In this document: positions 3,880 through 51,461 of the stretch, in pieces
Numbering within the stretch: position 1 is the stretch's first letter
How the letters are laid out: each line of letters starts with the position of its first letter
Assembly: GCA_035284745.1 (NCBI GenBank)
Contig: JAYKIL010000031.1
Location: 37,201-101,200, forward strand
Reading direction: 5' to 3'
Source: Candidatus Sericytochromatia bacterium
GTDB taxonomy: Bacteria > Cyanobacteriota > Sericytochromatia > S15B-MN24 > JAQBPE01
Length of the DNA: 64,000 nt
Translations under genes and position numbers: made by a program
The notes under the pieces: generated by a model
Databases searched by the model: none
Seen by the model: the letters and a program-made list of their open reading frames with translations, nothing else
What the model was told of the DNA's origin: nothing

Positions 3880-6291
3880 ATGTTGAGCAAGAACGCCGTC
3901 ACGGTTCTTGAGAAGCGCTACCTGTTGAAGGACGAGCAAGGGAAACTCGCGGAGTCCCCGGAGGGACTGTTCCGCCGGGTCGCCCGTGCCCTCGCAGAAC
4001 CGGATCGCTTGTATGGTGCCACCGAAGAGCAAGTTGCGAAAACGGCGCAAACGTTCTTTGAGTTGACTCACGGTTTGGACTTTTTACCAAACTCGCCGAC
4101 TTTAGCGAATGCCGGCACGCGTACGGGACAACTCTCCGCTTGCTTCGTTCTGCCCGTTCCCGATGACTTGGGTGGCATCTTTGAAAGCATCAAACACGCG
4201 GCCCTGATTCATCAGACGGGGGGAGGCACAGGTTTTTCATTCTCTCGTCTGCGCCCGAAGAACGACTTGGTCCAGAGCACCAAGGGGGTGTCCTCGGGCC
4301 CGGTATCTTTCATGGACGTGTTCAATGCCGCCACGGAGAGCATCAAACAGGGCGGGATGAGACGTGGCGCCAACATGGGCATTCTGCGGGTTGATCATCC
4401 AGATATTCTGGACTTTGTCGCGCACAAGGAAGACCTGACCAAGCTCACGAACTTTAATATTTCGGTTGCGGTGACCGATGCCTTCATGAACGCGGTGGCC
4501 GCTGGCACGGAGTACGACCTCTACAATCCCCGGACCGGAGAGGTGGTATCCCGGTTGGATGCGCGCAGTGTATTCAAACAGGTCGTTCAACGGGCTTGGA
4601 GCACGGGAGAACCAGGGGTGGTATTCATCGACCGGATGAATGAGTATTGTCCGGTTCCTTGGATTGGTAAGTACGAGGCCACCAACCCGTGTGGTGAGCA
4701 ACCACTGATTCCTTTTGAATCTTGCAACCTGGGTTCCGTGAACCTTGAGCAATTTGTGGCAGAATCTCCGACCGGTCCCGTTGTGGATTGGGCGCGTCTG
4801 CGTCAAGTTGTGCATGCCGCCACGCACCTTCTTGACAACGTCATCGACGCGAACCGATACCCGATTCCTGAAATTCGGGATGTGACCCACGCGACCCGAA
4901 AAATTGGACTGGGCGTGATGGGTTATGCCCGGATGCTGTTTAAGCTCGGCGTAGGCTATGGTTCCCCAGAAAGCCTCCAATTGGCAGAGCATCTGATGAG
5001 TTTCATTGACTTCGAATCAAAAGTGAAGAGTGTGGAGTTGGCGAAAACTCGTGGGGCGTTCCCTGCCCGGGCGGGTCACGAGGCCGAGTCAAATGCTATC
5101 TTCGAGCGCATGTTCGCAGAGCGTGCGGCGCGCCCGGGCCGCCACCCTGAGGCTCGGTACCAGGAACTTTGGACGGAGGTGGCGAAGCACGGATTGCGCA
5201 ACTCCACGACCACGACGGTGGCACCCACGGGCACGCTGTCAATCATTGCGGATACGTCGGGGGGCTGTGAGCCGGTTTTTGCCTTGGCATTTAAACGCTG
5301 GCAGGCAGATACGCACATGGTCGATGTGGATGGTGTCTTCCTCGAATACGCGAAGGCGAAGGGTTTCTACACGCCTGAGTTGATGGAGGCGATCGACGTC
5401 AACCACGGAAGCTTGATTGGTTTGGCGGGGCATCCATTGCCTGATGTGGCCCTCAACATTTTCAAAACGGCGCACGACATCACGCCCGAGGAGCACGTTC
5501 GCACACAGGCCGCGTTCCAGCATTACAATGATTCCGCCACTTCCAAGACCATCAACTTCCCGGAACAAGCCACGGTCGAGGATGTGGAAACGGCCTACCT
5601 TCTCGCTTATCAGACAGGATGCAAGGGTATTACCGTTTACCGAAACAATTCCAGGCAGTTCCAGCCTTTGTCTGTGTCTTCGGCTCCCGCAGCACCTGCT
5701 GTGGCTCCGGAAGCAGCGGGCGATACGTCGACCGAAGGGGTCGCTTTGGTTTTGGGCAAGGCCCGCCCACGTCCTGAGGACCTGTATGGTTTCACGCGGA
5801 CCACGCAGACCGGAGACGGTAAACTCTACACCACGGTGAATTACGACGAATATGGCATTCGTGAGGTCGTAACCAACATCGGCCGTTCGGGTGGCACCCT
5901 CTTCAGTCTTTCGGAGGCTATCGGGCGCTTGATTAGTCTGTCCTTGCAGCACAACGTGCCTGTAGACGAAATCTCTCGCAGTCTGATTGGAATTCGGGGC
6001 GCCAATCCCTATGGGTTTGGGGCGTCTCAGATTCTGAGCATCCCGGATGCCATTGGGAAGGTTCTGAAGGACAGCCCCCGGAAGTTAGGTCAGGTTCTTG
6101 CGGCGCAACCTTCGACGCTTCAAGTGGCAGCTTCCGTCGCGGCCGGTTCTCGTTCGTCTGTGGAGCGATACGGGCCGGATGCCGTGCATATTTTCGGTGA
6201 AAGCCCTGAGTGCCCGGAATGCGGCAGTGGGTTAGAGTTCGGCGAGGGTTGTGTGACATGCCGCGGATGCGGTTACTCTCGCTGTGGCTAG
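3880..6291 (+). CDS. nrdJ: Class II (adenosylcobalamin-dependent) ribonucleotide reductase with C-terminal TSCPD-like domain and Zn ribbon
   Basis: FLPNSPTL, QLSACFV, ATNPCGEQ, CNLGSVNL, APTGTLS, KGITVYR, C-terminal CPECG...CRGCGYSRCG; GAGGAG RBS. Confidence 0.95.
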   Translation: MLSKNAVTVLEKRYLLKDEQGKLAESPEGLFRRVARALAEPDRLYGATEEQVAKTAQTFFELTHGLDFLPNSPTLANAGTRTGQLSACFVLPVPDDLGGIFESIKHAALIHQTGGGTGFSFSRLRPKNDLVQSTKGVSSGPVSFMDVFNAATESIKQGGMRRGANMGILRVDHPDILDFVAHKEDLTKLTNFNISVAVTDAFMNAVAAGTEYDLYNPRTGEVVSRLDARSVFKQVVQRAWSTGEPGVVFIDRMNEYCPVPWIGKYEATNPCGEQPLIPFESCNLGSVNLEQFVAESPTGPVVDWARLRQVVHAATHLLDNVIDANRYPIPEIRDVTHATRKIGLGVMGYARMLFKLGVGYGSPESLQLAEHLMSFIDFESKVKSVELAKTRGAFPARAGHEAESNAIFERMFAERAARPGRHPEARYQELWTEVAKHGLRNSTTTTVAPTGTLSIIADTSGGCEPVFALAFKRWQADTHMVDVDGVFLEYAKAKGFYTPELMEAIDVNHGSLIGLAGHPLPDVALNIFKTAHDITPEEHVRTQAAFQHYNDSATSKTINFPEQATVEDVETAYLLAYQTGCKGITVYRNNSRQFQPLSVSSAPAAPAVAPEAAGDTSTEGVALVLGKARPRPEDLYGFTRTTQTGDGKLYTTVNYDEYGIREVVTNIGRSGGTLFSLSEAIGRLISLSLQHNVPVDEISRSLIGIRGANPYGFGASQILSIPDAIGKVLKDSPRKLGQVLAAQPSTLQVAASVAAGSRSSVERYGPDAVHIFGESPECPECGSGLEFGEGCVTCRGCGYSRCG

Positions 6292-35043: not shown

Positions 35044-36132
35044 TTAGACTGCCCACGGAAAAACGCGCTCGCAAACGGCCTCTTTCTGTCTCACCCGGTA
35101 TTCGCGGTGCGCCGCCTGGCCTTCTTGGTTCTCTTCAAAGGCAGCTTGGTCCATAATCTGAACTTCGAACGGAATAAAGGCCCGCTGAACTTCCTCACCG
35201 CGGCGTACCTTCACCAAGGCGCGCGCGGTGAATTGCATGGTCTGAAATGTGGAGGCACTGTGGGGGTTCCGGTCGTGCTCTCGCGAGGGTGGGGTATCGA
35301 TTTGATGCACGAGTCCCGTGAACTCTCGAAAGTTAATATCTCCCTGTCTGTAGGATTCATCCAGGTCATCGAATGTTTTTTGAAAGGCGTTCATGTCGAT
35401 CAACGTGTTCACAGAACGGCTGGGTTTAACGTTTGGATAGGCGAATACGTTGTTGACTCGCAAATATTTGAGCAGCAACAAAGCGTATGCTTTGTCCGGC
35501 GTCACGAAACGAACCCCCAGATGGTCGTAAATTTCTTGGGCCACGCTGTCTACCTTGTGCAAAAGCTTCAAAACGAGGCTTTCCCAAGGTTTTTCTGCCT
35601 TAAAATCGCATCGCAACAAGGGGATGATCATCTCCCCATCGGTTATCAGCATGCGGGATTGTCCAAGCTTGAGATGGGCAGAGAATCGCTCAAAGATTTG
35701 ACTCCGGGCTGCTTTGACCAATGCGGGGTCCTGCGCATACCGCGCGTGGGCCACCGCATGCCCCACCTTGAGGAACGAACAGGCCCAGTCCCGCAACGGG
35801 TGGTCAGGCGTTGACGCGAGCAAGAACAATTCAGGGAAGGTTTTCGGCAGGTCTTCGGGAAGGCCCGAGAGTGAACGCCACGGAAGGAGCACCGAGTTAA
35901 AAAAATGGGCCGTCTGCTGACTGATTTCTTCTAATTCAGACGCATCCAGGGGATCATCCGGGTCGAGACCGTAGGCCCTCAGATTGTCCAGCGCGGCCTC
36001 CCTCGTGCTCACCCGCAAACCCACCAGGTCGATGACTGAACGCCCTTCAACAATCGCTCCCAGCGTTTGCCACGGGAAACGATAGATGGGGTCGGAGATG
36101 GGGGACCCACCAATTTCGCTATGGGAAGTCAT
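35044..36132 (-). CDS. TIGR04552-like protein (RelA/SpoT-type nucleotidyltransferase fold)
   Basis: [11 protein letters not shown]....[27 protein letters not shown]...QFT.R, PFEVQI.D, H..YR.RQ. Confidence 0.78.
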
Positions 36133-36210
36133 CGGTGATTACTCAACGCCAAGGGCCGCGAACCTCAAAGCCATCTCGAATTTTCCGGGCGTCCTCTCTG
36201 TGCTCTGCAC

Positions 36211-36432
36211 TTAGATGGCTTTGAGCAATTCAACGACCTCGCCATCCTCCAAGAATCTTTGTGTCTCGTGCTTGTCAAAAATTACGCGGTCGCCCACGCG
36301 AACTTGAAAAACCCCGCCACTGCCCCGAACGAGTTGGGGGTGGACGCCAAAGGCTTTTTCTATTTCGGCAGCCACACGGGCTGCCCGAGGTTCGTAGTTT
36401 CAAACCCCGCAATATGTTATTTCGATTTGCAT
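36211..36432 (-). CDS. SelW/SelT/SelH (Rdx)-family selenoprotein, 73 aa, Sec at codon 11 (absent from the ORF track)
   Basis: Read by hand: MQIEITYCGV-U(TGA 36402-36400)-NYEPRAARVAAEIEKAFGVHPQLVRGSGGVFQVRVGDRVIFDKHETQRFLEDGEVVELLKAI-TAA; GGAG RBS; Rdx motifs YCxxU-Y, GxGGxFxV, F-K---RF. Confidence 0.9.
36365..36388 (-). promoter_or_regulatory. Bacterial SECIS element
   Basis: GGCAGCC-CGUGU-GGCUGCC hairpin (7 bp, extendable); loop starts after 21 nt downstream of the UGA, with G at loop position 2. Confidence 0.8.
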
Positions 36433-36493
36433 CAAACTCACACTCCCAAAAATTAAATTTTTTCTTTACAACGCCAAAATTCGGCTTGCCGTC

Positions 36494-36509
36494 TGTGAAT
36501 CTTCTCACA
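36494..36509. promoter_or_regulatory. CRP/FNR-family binding site
   Basis: Perfect TGTGA-N6-TCACA in the divergent intergenic region. Confidence 0.65.
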
Positions 36510-36659
36510 AATGTGACTTTGGGTAAATTCTTCGTCTCAGAAACTTGCCAAATTTGCGCAGGCTTGTTGTATGCTATGCGAGAACTTTTTTGCTGCAGTC
36601 GTTGCCGACGCATCGCTTCGCTTGCGGGACGTCACACATCAGAGGAAATACAGCGCACT

Positions 36660-37193
36660 ATGAATAAGCATGCGGGAGGTCGTCCGGCGAAGAGCGGTGC
36701 ACGGCGCGAACTGAAAACCTTCCGACTGGTTCCCGATGCCATCGATCGTTTGGACACCATTGCTGCCGAGCGAGGTGCGTCCACCAGCGATGTGTTGAAC
36801 GACTTGCTGTTAGGAGTGCGTCGGGCGGACCACGGCGACCATTCACGGGGCCCTCGTTTCAGCGTGTTGCCGGGGCAGCACGACGTGGAAAGCAGCAAAG
36901 TTGCCTCCCTTGAACGTTTCAAAGTCCTCACCGGTCGGGGGCGTCCGGGGCAAACGGAGGATTCTGCGCGTTTGGCGCACGAACTGGCTCGCCTGCGCGA
37001 TGCGTTGGGGGGTGTTTTGGGTGAGGTGGAGCATTTGATGGCCGAGCAAATTGCTGGAGATGCTCAGCCGATACGCGCTGGGAGCAAAGCGGCAGACCCT
37101 TACGCCCACGGATTTCGCGACGGGATGTTAGAGGCCTTAGAAACGGCATACGCCCTGCTGCAGGCTGAACTTTTGATAACGGAAGGATTCTAA
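36660..37193 (+). CDS. Ribbon-helix-helix (CopG-like) DNA-binding protein with coiled-coil C-terminus
   Basis: GGRPAK...KTFRL...IDRLDTIAAERGASTSDVLNDLL; GAGGA upstream; start placed at MNKH. Confidence 0.65.
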   Translation: MNKHAGGRPAKSGARRELKTFRLVPDAIDRLDTIAAERGASTSDVLNDLLLGVRRADHGDHSRGPRFSVLPGQHDVESSKVASLERFKVLTGRGRPGQTEDSARLAHELARLRDALGGVLGEVEHLMAEQIAGDAQPIRAGSKAADPYAHGFRDGMLEALETAYALLQAELLITEGF

Positions 37194-37213
37194 AACCTTC
37201 TTCCTGCTGGGCG

Positions 37214-38074
37214 TTATTGCAGCCGTTGCAGGTCCTCGCGCAACGCGCTTCTCAGCGTCTCCGCATTGACGTGGGTGGCGCCTGCCGCCCACATCGGCTT
37301 AAGCAGTTCCGTCACGCTTAATGTGTCGATAGCCATCGACTCGCACGGGGGAACTTTACGGGGCATTGCCCCATTTTTTTTCGCGCGCAAACGCGCAACC
37401 CGTTGTTCGGTTTCCCGGACGCTCATCTGTTTCGTCTGAATTTCGGCGATCACCTGTTGGCGAATGCCCGCATCCCCAATTTGCACGACTGCCTTGGCGT
37501 GCCCAGGATGAAACGCGTGATGGGGGTTTTTTTCTGAGAGGGCGAGCGCGTCTTGAACCTCAGCAGGATATCTCAGCATCCGAATTCGCTGTTCCACGTA
37601 GGTTTTGGACTTACCAATTTTTTCGCCGAGCTGGCGATGGGACCATTGGGTGTCCTCCAGAATCTGTTGTAAAACGCGGGCTTCCTCCAGGGGGCTAATG
37701 TCTTCCCTTTGAAGATTTTCTATTAACGCCACTTGCCGTGCGGTGACATCATCAACCTGCCGTATCACGACGGGTACACTGTCCAGCTCTGCCAGAAGGC
37801 TGGCACGGAAACGTCGTTCTCCGGCGATAATTTCATAGCGCCCCGGGGTTTTTGTGGGATGAGGCCGCACAATAAGCGGCTGAAGAACGCCATGCGCACG
37901 AATGCTGGCTGCAAGTTCTTGAAGTCCCTCTTGATCAATCAACGTTCGAGGTTGACCGGGGTGAGGTTCGAGGTGCGCGAGCCTCATTTGACGCGGGGCG
38001 GCGTCCAGTGAAAGATTTCGGCTCGCTTCATACAAAGCCGCAAAAGAACCTGCAGCAGGGGTCGCAGCATTCAT
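37214..38074 (-). CDS. ParB/RepB/Spo0J-family protein
   Basis: QPR, ELAASIRAHGVLQPLIVR, IAGERRFRA, ENLQRED, HTH (HRQLGEKIGKSKTYV). Confidence 0.92.
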   Translation of the reverse strand: MNAATPAAGSFAALYEASRNLSLDAAPRQMRLAHLEPHPGQPRTLIDQEGLQELAASIRAHGVLQPLIVRPHPTKTPGRYEIIAGERRFRASLLAELDSVPVVIRQVDDVTARQVALIENLQREDISPLEEARVLQQILEDTQWSHRQLGEKIGKSKTYVEQRIRMLRYPAEVQDALALSEKNPHHAFHPGHAKAVVQIGDAGIRQQVIAEIQTKQMSVRETEQRVARLRAKKNGAMPRKVPPCESMAIDTLSVTELLKPMWAAGATHVNAETLRSALREDLQRLQ

Positions 38075-48806: not shown

Positions 48807-51320
48807 TTAGGTCGCAGCAGGCACGTCCTCTGGCACCGTCAACCGACGAATCAATGCCGTGTAATCTTCTATAATCTGGTCCGCTTGCATCGCAGAGTTC
48901 GCGTCGGCGAAAAGGTGGACCACAGGGTCTACGGGATCGGGCAGCACCAAAGCCCAACCGCCTTGGCAGAAGACTTTCACGCCGTCAATGAGTTCCGTTT
49001 GTCCGTGTTTACTTTGCTCAACGAGCACCCGCATGACCGTGCCTTTCTGTTCCCAAGGGCAGGGGACAACCTCGTGCACGTGGTGAAAATCGGGCAGATC
49101 GTCGACCAGGTCCGCGACCGAGCGTCCCGACGCGGCCAAAGCCTCCGCAATTCGGCCTGCCGCCATCATGGCATCATATCCAGGGTGGATAGCAGGGAAG
49201 ATAAACTTACCGTCAAGGTTCCCCGCCATGATGACGCCTTCGTGGCGAGATGCCTCCATCATGGCGCGAGAGTTTACTTTGGTCCGGATCACGGTCGTAC
49301 CAGATTCAGCCGCCACCGATTCAATAATGGAGGGGGCGCTGACCGGAACAACGACCTTCCCGTGAGGGTGCAAGGTTCCAACAAGCCGAACCATCAGGAC
49401 CAAAAGGCGCCCCGAGCTAATGATGCGGCCTCGGGGGTCTACCAAATGAAGTCGTTCGGCATTGTCATCAATTTGGAAACCGAAGGTCGCCTTAAGAGCG
49501 AGCACAATATGGCTCAGCTGTTGCCGCAATTCTTCTCTTTGGCGCGGGCTCGGAGGTTGACTCGCGGCGTGCGCGTTTAAAACCACGGTCTCCGCTCCCA
49601 TACGGCCCAGCAAGCCAGGAAGCATCACGTTGCTGAATGAGTTTGCGTAGTCGATGACTATTTTGGGCCGCATCCGCTTCAGGCCCTCTGGGCTGATGGC
49701 GCGACAGTAACCACTGGCATAGTGTTCCGTGACCCTCGCCGGAAACGAGATGTTTCCAATGTCGGCCAAACTGACCCGCCGAAAGTCTTCTTTGAAGAAA
49801 TTCGACTCAATTTTTTTCTCCTCAGCTTTCGATATGGTCATGCCTTTACTGTCCAAGAAGTCAATGACCACTTCGTTTTCGGAGTCGGCCGACATCCGAA
49901 TATGAATTCCTCCCCGCGCGTTGGTCTCTGGCAGGAAAAAACGGGTTATCGGGAGGCTTGTAGATTCTAAGTTGTGAACGTTCACACCAACCGACAGCAG
50001 GCCAGAAATCATTCCTCGGTTGATCATCCTGCTTGCGGGGGTCGAGTCGCGACTGACCGTGACTGAACTGCCCAACGGCAATGTCGCTCCGTAACTGGCG
50101 CCCAGTTTGACCGCGAATTCCGGGGTAATTTCAATGTTGGCCAGGCCTTCAACCCCTGTGGCTCCAAACAAAGTCCGTTGAGCCTGAGAGCCCCAAATCA
50201 GAGAACTTGTGAGGGTCGCACCCGCGTCGATGGTTTTATTTGGCCAGATTTTGACTTCCGGTTTGATTTGCGCCTCTTCACCCACCACACAATCGTTGGC
50301 AACGATGGCGCCCTCCAGTATCACCGCTCCTCGTTTGATGCTAGACCCCTTACCGATCACACAGCCTCTGAGCTGGACCTCTTCTCCGATGTAGACGTTG
50401 TTCCAGATAATGGGACGTTTAAGCGATGACCCCTCGCCGACGATGACGTTATCGCCAAGGACGGTTCCAGGGGTTAGCGTTGCTCCGGCACCAATCTGGC
50501 AATTGTGGCCGATCACTACGGGCCCGCTGATCTGCGCACTGGGGGCAATCACGGTTCCTTCTCCCACCCAAATATTTCCCTCTATGCGCGTGTAACCGTG
50601 GTCAATCGCCACCTTTCCATCCAAGATGTCATAGTGCGCTTGGCGATAGCTTTGGAGGTTCCCAACGTCTTCCCAGTATCCGTCAGCCACATAGCCGTAC
50701 ATCGGGTCTTGGCGTTGAAGCAGCAGGGGAAACAAGTCTTTCGAGAAGTCCACTTCCTGGTCAGGTGGAAGAAGGGCCAGGACTTGGGGTTCGAGGATGT
50801 AGGTGCCCGTGTTAATGGTGTCGGAAAAGACCTCCGACATCGATGGCTTCTCTAAAAAACGCTGAATTCGCCCCTCTTCATCAGTGATAACTACGCCGAA
50901 TTCAAGCGGGTTGTTGACGCGTTTCAAGACAATGGTGGCGAGGCTTTGCTTGGCCTTGTGAAACGCCACCGCTTGGGCCAGGTCGATGTCTGTCAGAGAA
51001 TCTCCTGAGATGACCAGGAAGGTATCGTCCAGAAGGTCTTCGATCGCTTTGACGCAACCGGCCGTACCGAGTGGCATTTTTTCTTCGACGGCATAGCTGA
51101 TTTTTACACCGAAATCGTGTCCGTCACCAAAGTAGTTCTGAATGACGTGGGGCAAGTAATAAAGAGTGATCACAATGTCCGTCACGCCGTGACGCTTCAA
51201 TAAATTAATGATGTGCTCTGCCATCGGCTTCGTCAGCATGGGCACCATTGGCTTTGGAATGTCGCAGGTCAATGGTCGCAGACGCGTGCCAGAACCACCT
51301 GCCATCAATACTGCTTTCAT
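48807..51320 (-). CDS. Mannose-1-phosphate guanylyltransferase/phosphomannomutase-like fusion
   Basis: AGGSGTRLRPLT, EKP, hexapeptide repeats, then LFG..GV.G alpha-phosphohexomutase domains; GAGGAGG RBS. Confidence 0.9.
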   Translation of the reverse strand: MKAVLMAGGSGTRLRPLTCDIPKPMVPMLTKPMAEHIINLLKRHGVTDIVITLYYLPHVIQNYFGDGHDFGVKISYAVEEKMPLGTAGCVKAIEDLLDDTFLVISGDSLTDIDLAQAVAFHKAKQSLATIVLKRVNNPLEFGVVITDEEGRIQRFLEKPSMSEVFSDTINTGTYILEPQVLALLPPDQEVDFSKDLFPLLLQRQDPMYGYVADGYWEDVGNLQSYRQAHYDILDGKVAIDHGYTRIEGNIWVGEGTVIAPSAQISGPVVIGHNCQIGAGATLTPGTVLGDNVIVGEGSSLKRPIIWNNVYIGEEVQLRGCVIGKGSSIKRGAVILEGAIVANDCVVGEEAQIKPEVKIWPNKTIDAGATLTSSLIWGSQAQRTLFGATGVEGLANIEITPEFAVKLGASYGATLPLGSSVTVSRDSTPASRMINRGMISGLLSVGVNVHNLESTSLPITRFFLPETNARGGIHIRMSADSENEVVIDFLDSKGMTISKAEEKKIESNFFKEDFRRVSLADIGNISFPARVTEHYASGYCRAISPEGLKRMRPKIVIDYANSFSNVMLPGLLGRMGAETVVLNAHAASQPPSPRQREELRQQLSHIVLALKATFGFQIDDNAERLHLVDPRGRIISSGRLLVLMVRLVGTLHPHGKVVVPVSAPSIIESVAAESGTTVIRTKVNSRAMMEASRHEGVIMAGNLDGKFIFPAIHPGYDAMMAAGRIAEALAASGRSVADLVDDLPDFHHVHEVVPCPWEQKGTVMRVLVEQSKHGQTELIDGVKVFCQGGWALVLPDPVDPVVHLFADANSAMQADQIIEDYTALIRRLTVPEDVPAAT

Positions 51321-51461
51321 CGTGTGATCCCTCCTCCTCAAACCGGCAAGCCACCGGTTAGGCACCCTGCAAGAAGCCTTTTCCGGCCACGATTCTACCT
51401 CATCTCACCGGACTTCAAGGTTCAACAAATGGCCTTATCCGACAGTGTGAGGTCTGGCGTT

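Follow-up and report, generated by a model that had tools for sequence, protein, structure and literature searches.

A candidate Rdx-family selenoprotein gene with an in-frame UGA and a SECIS-type hairpin in a non-photosynthetic member of the cyanobacterial phylum

Does an in-frame TGA near the start of a short bacterial gene mark a broken gene, a reassigned codon or a site at which selenocysteine (Sec) is inserted? This question is raised by a locus on the minus strand of a 64,000-nt stretch of DNA (the window; G000:C31:37201-101200) from Candidatus Sericytochromatia bacterium, assembly GCA_035284745.1 (here G000), contig JAYKIL010000031.1. The source assembly comprises 2.50 Mb in 39 contigs, with a completeness of 95.2% and a contamination of 1.8%. 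An earlier reading of the locus (the original prediction) had proposed a hidden gene of the Rdx (SelW/SelT/SelH-like) family, with Sec encoded by UGA at codon 11 and a selenocysteine insertion sequence (SECIS) element behind it. From comparative sequence analyses, we place at roughly 0.93 the probability that this is a genuine selenoprotein gene, in which UGA-11 is read as Sec and the product is a thioredoxin-fold thiol/selenol oxidoreductase; Sec incorporation, binding of SelB, activity and substrate are what we infer from these comparisons.

Read from its ATG, the product begins MQIEITYCGV-U-NYEP, and 62 codons separate the in-frame TGA from the TAA stop. The motifs GSGGVFQV and IFDK...RF, which the original prediction had named as Rdx features, were both present in this frame, as was a ribosome-binding site, GGGAG, ahead of the ATG (Table 1). 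The choice of start codon is backed by the orthologues, in which a Met is aligned with it. The gene had been said to be missed by the plain open reading frame (ORF) track, and this proved correct, because the only ORF listed at the locus under translation table 11 is one of 54 aa that starts with GTG (36211..36375).

Sequence and predicted fold both assign the read-through product to the Rdx/SelT-SelW-SelH family. The search with the Rdx hidden Markov model that had been suggested as a check gave 65.2 bits for Pfam Rdx (PF10262; cut-off 22.6), covering profile positions 1-73 of 74. NCBIfam TIGR02174 scored 49.1 bits (cut-off 34.2) and NF041051, 'SelT/SelW/SelH family (seleno)protein', 89.9 bits; the latter model takes its name from Campylobacter-type members, and its cut-off of 88 was barely exceeded. 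A profile built from 19 orthologues matched eight solved Rdx-fold structures, Selenoprotein W (2npb) among them, and the Sec column was paired with the second Cys of YCTQC in both of the printed alignments (3dex and 2fa8). An AlphaFold2 model computed from the orthologue alignment (pLDDT 96.4) placed a strand at residues 3-8 and a helix at residues 14-28, with Cys8 terminating β1 and Sec11 preceding α1, and the predicted fold is the thioredoxin-like β-α-β-β-β-α arrangement. Using Foldseek, the predicted model was superimposed on 2fa8_A with a template modelling (TM) score of 0.93 and a root-mean-square deviation of 1.1 Å, and it matched six bacterial SelW-related crystal structures at TM 0.87-0.93.

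Forty relatives of G000 were searched with the Rdx protein. The gene was found in 18 of these, at 32-63% protein identity to the query, and an in-frame TGA was present in all 18. When G000 was included, the TGA fell in one alignment column, the fourth position of C-x-x-U, in 19/19 loci, and the peptide 5' of it was conserved, I5, Y7 and C8 being invariant across the 19 sequences. These genomes are kin, and the cross-tabulation of Rdx against selA is given as bare counts: 17 relatives possess both genes, one (G023, 81% complete) has Rdx without selA, four have selA without Rdx, and 18 have neither. Otherwise, relatives without selA miss the Rdx gene altogether, with no Cys-form substitute in its place. 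Absence of the gene, instead of a Cys form, fits a remark in PMC1794560, which lists SelW-like among the established selenoprotein families of bacteria and notes how rarely Sec-using organisms possess Cys homologues of these proteins. The expectation that homologues would carry either Cys or Sec at codon 11 held true, with TGA throughout the relatives' loci and Cys in the solved homologues as well as in two paralogues, L119 and L121, of a named Candidatus Obscuribacterales metagenome-assembled genome (MAG; G041), which is absent from the 47 genomes of G000's class. The three Rdx paralogues of this MAG (L119, L120 and L121) comprise one Sec form (FCGS-U), whose hairpin has the offset seen in G000, and two Cys forms (YCGGC and YCTSC).

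Contigs from two sequencing runs that are both possibly the source of the assembly (X1 and X2), and from a third run of the same study (X4), were identical across 35900-36900. A contig from another study (X5), representing a strain of ~95% identity, covers 36282-36432 and differs at seven positions, none of them at 36400-36402. Thus TGC or TGT at these positions, which had been named as a finding that would speak against a selenoprotein, occurred in none of the assembled contigs compared. These data bear on the possibility that the locus is a nonsense pseudogene or an assembly error, in which case an Rdx gene that once encoded CxxC would either have been inactivated recently by mutation to TGA or have been misread during sequencing. 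Truncation of the gene by the table-11 ORF call, and a hairpin energy that is not significant alone (see below), would fit such an explanation. It is nevertheless extremely improbable in view of a TGA column that is kept in every locus across an order and a class, the conserved peptide upstream of it, the full Sec machinery of the genome (see below) and the presence of the TGA in four assemblies, one of them from a diverged strain.

The 7-bp hairpin whose CGUGU loop had been described as lying 21 nt past the UGA was recovered as the minimum-free-energy structure, its stem starting 14 nt past the UGA (Table 1). The 60 nt 3' of the UGA align without gaps over the 19 loci. In the helix columns (18-24/30-36), 88.1% of cells were paired, compared with 19-71% (maximum 71.4%) when the 3' partner was slid along the alignment, and the helix covariation score was 0.267 versus 0.092 ± 0.020 for shuffles, with 0/500 shuffles reaching the observed value. 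The same helix was recovered independently by RNAalifold, and G26 of the alignment, which lies in the loop, was invariant. Pair 21:33 was GC in 7, CG in 6, AU in 3 and UA in 2 of 18 distinct sequences, and unpaired in 0. Given that each partner occupies the third position of an Ala codon, these changes are synonymous as well as compensatory. In strain X5, the A of this pair is replaced by G, giving G.U; the change is synonymous, the TGA is kept, and the depth of the contig is 3.

The source genome contains selA, selB, selD and a tRNA-Sec, as anticipated if UGA were read as Sec (Table 1). The selA and selB genes are co-directional and lie ~40 nt apart (C8:289661-292893, minus strand), probably forming one operon; this adjacency recurs in the coordinates of several relatives. 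In the proposed mechanism, SelD would supply selenophosphate and SelA would convert Ser-tRNA(Sec) to Sec-tRNA(Sec). The hairpin 14 nt past the UGA would recruit SelB carrying Sec-tRNA(Sec) during translation, with UGA-11 being decoded as selenocysteine instead of stop, and the redox centre would be Cys8-Gly-Val-Sec11 at the β1/α1 junction.

Two further genes of G000 carry an in-frame TGA. The second Sec-encoding gene is selD itself, with the TGA at ...LSQTAG-U-ASKVAP..., which we take to be the catalytic Cys/Sec position of SelD; an 8-bp hairpin follows this UGA at a greater distance than the one in Rdx does. The other gene (G000:C5:11892-12380, plus strand; L154) encodes a rhodanese-domain protein of 162 aa with the TGA at LYCT-U-PNEY, and its Pfam Rhodanese match (56.5 bits, profile positions 1-101 of 102) spans the TGA. 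The Cys two residues before this TGA is presumably the catalytic Cys of the rhodanese. The hairpin behind it has a GUG loop and the same offset as that of the Rdx gene, the stem starting from nucleotide 18 when counted from the U of UGA. Among the eight relatives' loci fetched, the TGA column was kept in six, all from genomes with selA, whereas in G006, which lacks selA, the column holds TGC (Cys) and the hairpin is missing; in the eighth, from G020, no motif was matched by the search pattern used. Several relatives possess multiple TGA-bearing rhodanese copies.

A wider search of the G000 selenoproteome was less productive. A scan by motif only returned 2436 candidates and was discarded as noise, while a strict codon-usage filter left seven candidates and lost both positive controls. 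A looser codon-usage filter kept 51 of 13,868 TGA sites, with SelD passing and Rdx narrowly failing the final per-codon cut; when 10 of the 51 were run against Pfam, one matched Rhodanese and nine had no match. Judged from sequence, the genome thus encodes at least three putative selenoproteins (Rdx, SelD and the rhodanese-like protein), and this number is a minimum. Taken together, the machinery, the conserved TGA, the covarying hairpin and these two additional genes support the earlier suggestion that the organism decodes Sec.

The occurrence of in-frame TGA in at least three genes of G000 would equally be expected if TGA had been reassigned to Trp or Gly throughout the genome, as in NCBI tables 4 or 25. 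This explanation is contradicted by several observations. RpoB (1099 aa), SelA and SelB of G000 are open without any TGA, and in several orthologues of the Rdx gene a second TGA ends the frame where the homology stops. Each of the three in-frame TGAs occupies a Cys-type position, redox or catalytic, and has a hairpin behind it, the selA-less relative has TGC at the rhodanese position, and a dedicated tRNA-Sec is present. Genome-wide reassignment is therefore hardly credible.

A different question is what a Sec-containing Rdx protein would do. Its CxxU could bind or carry selenium or a metal for delivery or storage, the protein then being a real selenoprotein without being a thiol-disulfide oxidoreductase. 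The title under which one structural homologue, 2obk, was deposited reads 'putative Se binding protein', bacterial Rdx proteins have no known substrate, and the neighbouring genes yield no pathway clue (see below). A deposit title is, however, a label and not a test. A CxxC/CxxU at the β1-α1 junction of a thioredoxin-like fold is the classic redox geometry, and it is the geometry predicted here; moreover, thioredoxins were among the weaker structural matches of the predicted model (TM ~0.5). We consider the carrier role unlikely, and favor a putative thiol/selenol oxidoreductase.

Several results weigh against reading this locus as an expressed selenoprotein gene with redox activity. The folding energy of the hairpin was unexceptional when compared with shuffled sequences (z = -1.33, 22/200 shuffles being at least as stable). 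Because the energy is not significant alone, we lean on covariation, and here too there are reservations. Pair 22:32 is an A.C mismatch in 11/18 sequences, and the rest of the stem is largely dictated by a conserved A-A-x-x-A-A peptide, Ala codons being self-complementary by nature. In addition, the Cys-form paralogue L119 of the Obscuribacterales MAG permits a similar 6-bp helix, as drawn by eye. Since Ala codons explain most of the stem and L119 mimics it, pair 21:33 constitutes the sole independent evidence of a selected RNA structure. Beyond the hairpin, the comparison of runs used assembled contigs, which drop rare variants, and a scan of 35900-37300 found no promoter-like site. One genome of family f7 (G036, 98% complete) has selA (529.8 bits) and the Rdx TGA, yet no selB at E<=1e-35; its selB may have diverged, been split or escaped assembly. 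Finally, the catalytic role of bacterial Rdx proteins has not been established, and the oxidoreductase activity of the G000 protein is likewise a prediction. As a separate observation, L119 is the Cys form closest to the G000 protein (57% identity), and the weak helix at its SECIS position is either a SECIS remnant or a by-product of its Ala codons.

With its CxxU near the N-terminus, a length within the ~70-75 aa of bacterial SelW-like/Rdx proteins and scores above all three curated cut-offs, the G000 protein resembles the known bacterial members, whose fold in 2fa8, 3dex, 2ojl, 2obk, 2oka and 2p0g it is predicted to share; it differs in its host, which belongs to a non-photosynthetic class of the cyanobacterial phylum. 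Mammalian Selenoprotein W (2npb) and MIEN1 (2ljk) have the same Rdx fold and the same position of CxxU/CxxC (profile E = 2.3e-5 and 1.4e-10, respectively). Both were matched at a Foldseek probability of 1.00, yet at lower TM scores of 0.68 and 0.75. In eukaryotes, Sec insertion relies on a SECIS in the 3'-untranslated region plus SBP2. The location of the element thus differs from that of mammalian Selenoprotein W, as the candidate element in G000 lies inside the coding sequence just 3' of the UGA. This is where bacterial SECIS elements are placed in the relevant section of a review (PMC9312934). Like these, the hairpin is a stem-loop right after the UGA with a G in its apical loop (here CGUGU), from which the internal A.C mismatch seen in a majority of the orthologues is a departure.

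The surroundings of the gene were also analyzed. The downstream co-directional gene belongs to a family of unknown function (TIGR04552/TIGR04562) and has no Pfam match. On the other side, a 310-aa table-11 ORF on the plus strand (36261..37193) over-extends across the Rdx gene, and only its last ~210 residues are conserved; judged by this conservation, the true divergent gene is shorter than the ORF (Table 1). It matched no Pfam or NCBIfam family. A neighbor search covered 21 loci (18 from the relatives and three from the Obscuribacterales MAG) with 1.5-kb flanks each. Both neighbors were found beside Rdx only in G001, G003 and G007, i.e., in 3/18 of the relatives' Rdx loci; the remaining neighbors included an FKBP isomerase, a ParB-like protein and an AAA ATPase, and none gave a hint of a pathway. 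In the 35900-37300 interval, one terminator-like site was found, inside the coding sequence, and is not meaningful given that shuffles average 2.3. Elsewhere in the window, an 852-aa protein (48807-51365, minus strand) joins a nucleotidyl-transferase/hexapeptide module to a complete phosphoglucomutase/phosphomannomutase module and looks like a fusion for two-step sugar-nucleotide synthesis, and an 803-aa ribonucleotide reductase large chain (3880-6291, plus strand) has a TSCPD domain at its C-terminus.

Table 1. Positions of the Rdx locus features and neighboring genes (window coordinates) and of the Sec machinery genes (G000 contig coordinates).
Feature	Position	Strand	Evidence
Rdx (SelW/SelT/SelH-like) candidate selenoprotein coding sequence, 73 residues, ATG to TAA, one in-frame TGA	36211..36432	-	Sequence, translation, HMMs, model
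ATG start codon	36432-36430	-	Direct reading
UGA codon 11, second redox position of the C-x-x-U motif	36400..36402	-	Sequence, translation, alignment column, assemblies
TGC, Cys8, resolving/partner cysteine of CxxU	36409..36411	-	Direct reading; invariant 19/19; end of strand β1 in model
TAA stop	36213-36211	-	Direct reading
GGGAG ribosome-binding site, 10 nt 5' of ATG	36443..36447	-	Direct reading
SECIS-type hairpin: 5' arm GGCAGCC 36385-36379, loop CGUGU 36378-36374, 3' arm GGCUGCC 36373-36367	36367..36385	-	Minimum-free-energy fold
Downstream co-directional gene, TIGR04552/TIGR04562 family of unknown function, 78-nt gap to Rdx	35044..36132	-	TIGR04562 282.7 bits (cut-off 140), TIGR04552 270.8 bits
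Divergent conserved gene	36561..37193 (start ~36561)	+	Residues ~101-310 of ORF conserved in G001, G003, G007
selA	G000:C8:291547-292893	-	556.6 bits, above curated cut-off
selB, adjoining selA	G000:C8:289661-291505	-	368.8 bits, above curated cut-off
selD (L010)	G000:C12:160012-161061	-	378.6 bits, above curated cut-off
tRNA-Sec	G000:C14:24212-24304		69.4 bits, gathering score 47; ARAGORN SeC, anticodon TCA

GTDB recognizes three classes in the cyanobacterial phylum. G000 is a non-photosynthetic member of this phylum. Among the matches listed, its RpoB shares 69-71% identity with that of the Candidatus Obscuribacterales MAG and of oxygenic cyanobacteria, and 61% with that of a Margulisiibacteriota MAG. 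A search of the genome found no Photo_RC match and no PsaA/PsaB genes. We sampled 201 genomes of the phylum, i.e., 47 species genomes, which make up G000's class, and 154 outside it. Photo_RC was detected in 73 of the 201, all outside the class (0/47 inside), and in 0/74 genomes of f9, a large non-photosynthetic family outside G000's class. In an RpoB tree (FastTree; near-duplicate rows L042, L144 and L146 left out), G000's class was monophyletic with a support of 1.0, the Obscuribacterales MAG grouped with five oxygenic cyanobacteria (0.993), and Margulisiibacteriota fell outside. The class is inferred to be Sericytochromatia. Its position as the deeper sister of Obscuribacterales plus oxygenic cyanobacteria is tentative, the joining node having a support of only 0.404 in a tree of one gene with one named representative.

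To follow Sec decoding across the phylum, selA was used as the marker at a survey threshold of E<=1e-15. For selB, a threshold of E<=1e-60 had yielded 21/201 genomes, every one of them in G000's class; it was too strict, with split matches, such as those of G041 and G040, passing only when summed, and was replaced. Scores for selA above the cut-off were obtained for 23/47 genomes of G000's class, distributed by family as 6/7 in f1 (besides G000), 4/10 in f3, 7/8 in f4, 1/1 in f5, 4/6 in f7, 0/13 in f6 and 0/1 in f2. Outside the class, selA was found in 0/154 genomes, among them 73 photosynthetic ones (0/73); the sample is thin in large-genome members of the other non-photosynthetic class, for which this count is no evidence of absence. 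The Obscuribacterales MAG has selA (525.7 bits), selB (291.3 bits summed) and tRNA-Sec (71.3 bits), and selA was detected in 44/201 genomes of the class to which this MAG belongs. The selA-positive genomes of that class measure 4.1-9.6 Mb in 41/44 cases and 2.8-2.9 Mb in the other three, while of the 20 selA-negative genomes listed, 18 measure 1.6-2.5 Mb and the others 2.8 and 3.1 Mb.

That oxygenic cyanobacteria are reported to lack Sec, as the original prediction noted, is stated in passages of PMC1794560 and PMC9312934, where Sec decoding is described as undetected in Cyanobacteria and is explained either by unsequenced members or by a loss at the base of the phylum, and it agrees with the selA count in our photosynthetic genomes. 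Part of PMC5029168 mentions only an orphan SelD in Prochlorococcus, and an excerpt of PMC9529120 remarks in passing on a 'Candidatus melainabacteria' protein record that contains one Sec residue. The latter was the sole relevant match for selenocysteine with Melainabacteria; papers matching selenoprotein with Melainabacteria concern, by title and the start of the abstract, nutrition and the gut microbiota, with no genome analysis among them. Searches combining selenocysteine or selenoproteins with Sericytochromatia, Vampirovibrionia, Cyanobacteriota and GTDB, or non-photosynthetic cyanobacteria found no literature; the taxon supplements of PMC1794560 and PMC5029168 lay outside these searches and may bear on novelty. 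The original prediction had further remarked that Sec decoding would be notable if the host were a cyanobacterial sister lineage. This stands insofar as the host class lies within the phylum and is devoid of Photo_RC, but the organism shares this trait with others: judged by selA, Sec decoding is common in both non-photosynthetic classes, and there is the 'Candidatus melainabacteria' precedent. Because selA occurs in 23/47 and 44/201 genomes of these classes versus none of the photosynthetic genomes, the absence of Sec appears to belong to the oxygenic class and not to the phylum.

The history of the trait was approached through a SelA tree (39 rows, 466 columns; FastTree, midpoint root, three named outgroups). 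Twelve of 13 sequences from the class of the Obscuribacterales MAG formed one clade (0.999), and SelA was monophyletic within each of f1, f3, f4 and f7, with f7 standing apart. The sequences of G000's order joined those of Pelotomaculum, Desulfosporosinus and Sphaerobacter (0.932), and these three fell inside the cyanobacteriotal sequences. This topology opposes a single vertical descent of the Sec system from the ancestor of the phylum; coming from one gene and three outgroups, it is only a hint. A scenario in which Sec decoding was present in the phylum ancestor, persisted in parts of both non-photosynthetic classes and disappeared on the oxygenic stem is rather doubtful. If it were true, the published absence from cyanobacteria would result from the shift to oxygenic photosynthesis and would not characterize the phylum as a whole.

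The gene family and the mechanism described here are already known, and the novelty lies in the taxonomic setting, which is barely documented. Since table-11 gene callers truncate genes of this kind, the selenoproteomes of these lineages are likely to be under-annotated. With Sec decoding apparently represented in both non-photosynthetic classes, the timing of its gain or loss relative to the origin of oxygenic photosynthesis becomes testable by phylogeny.

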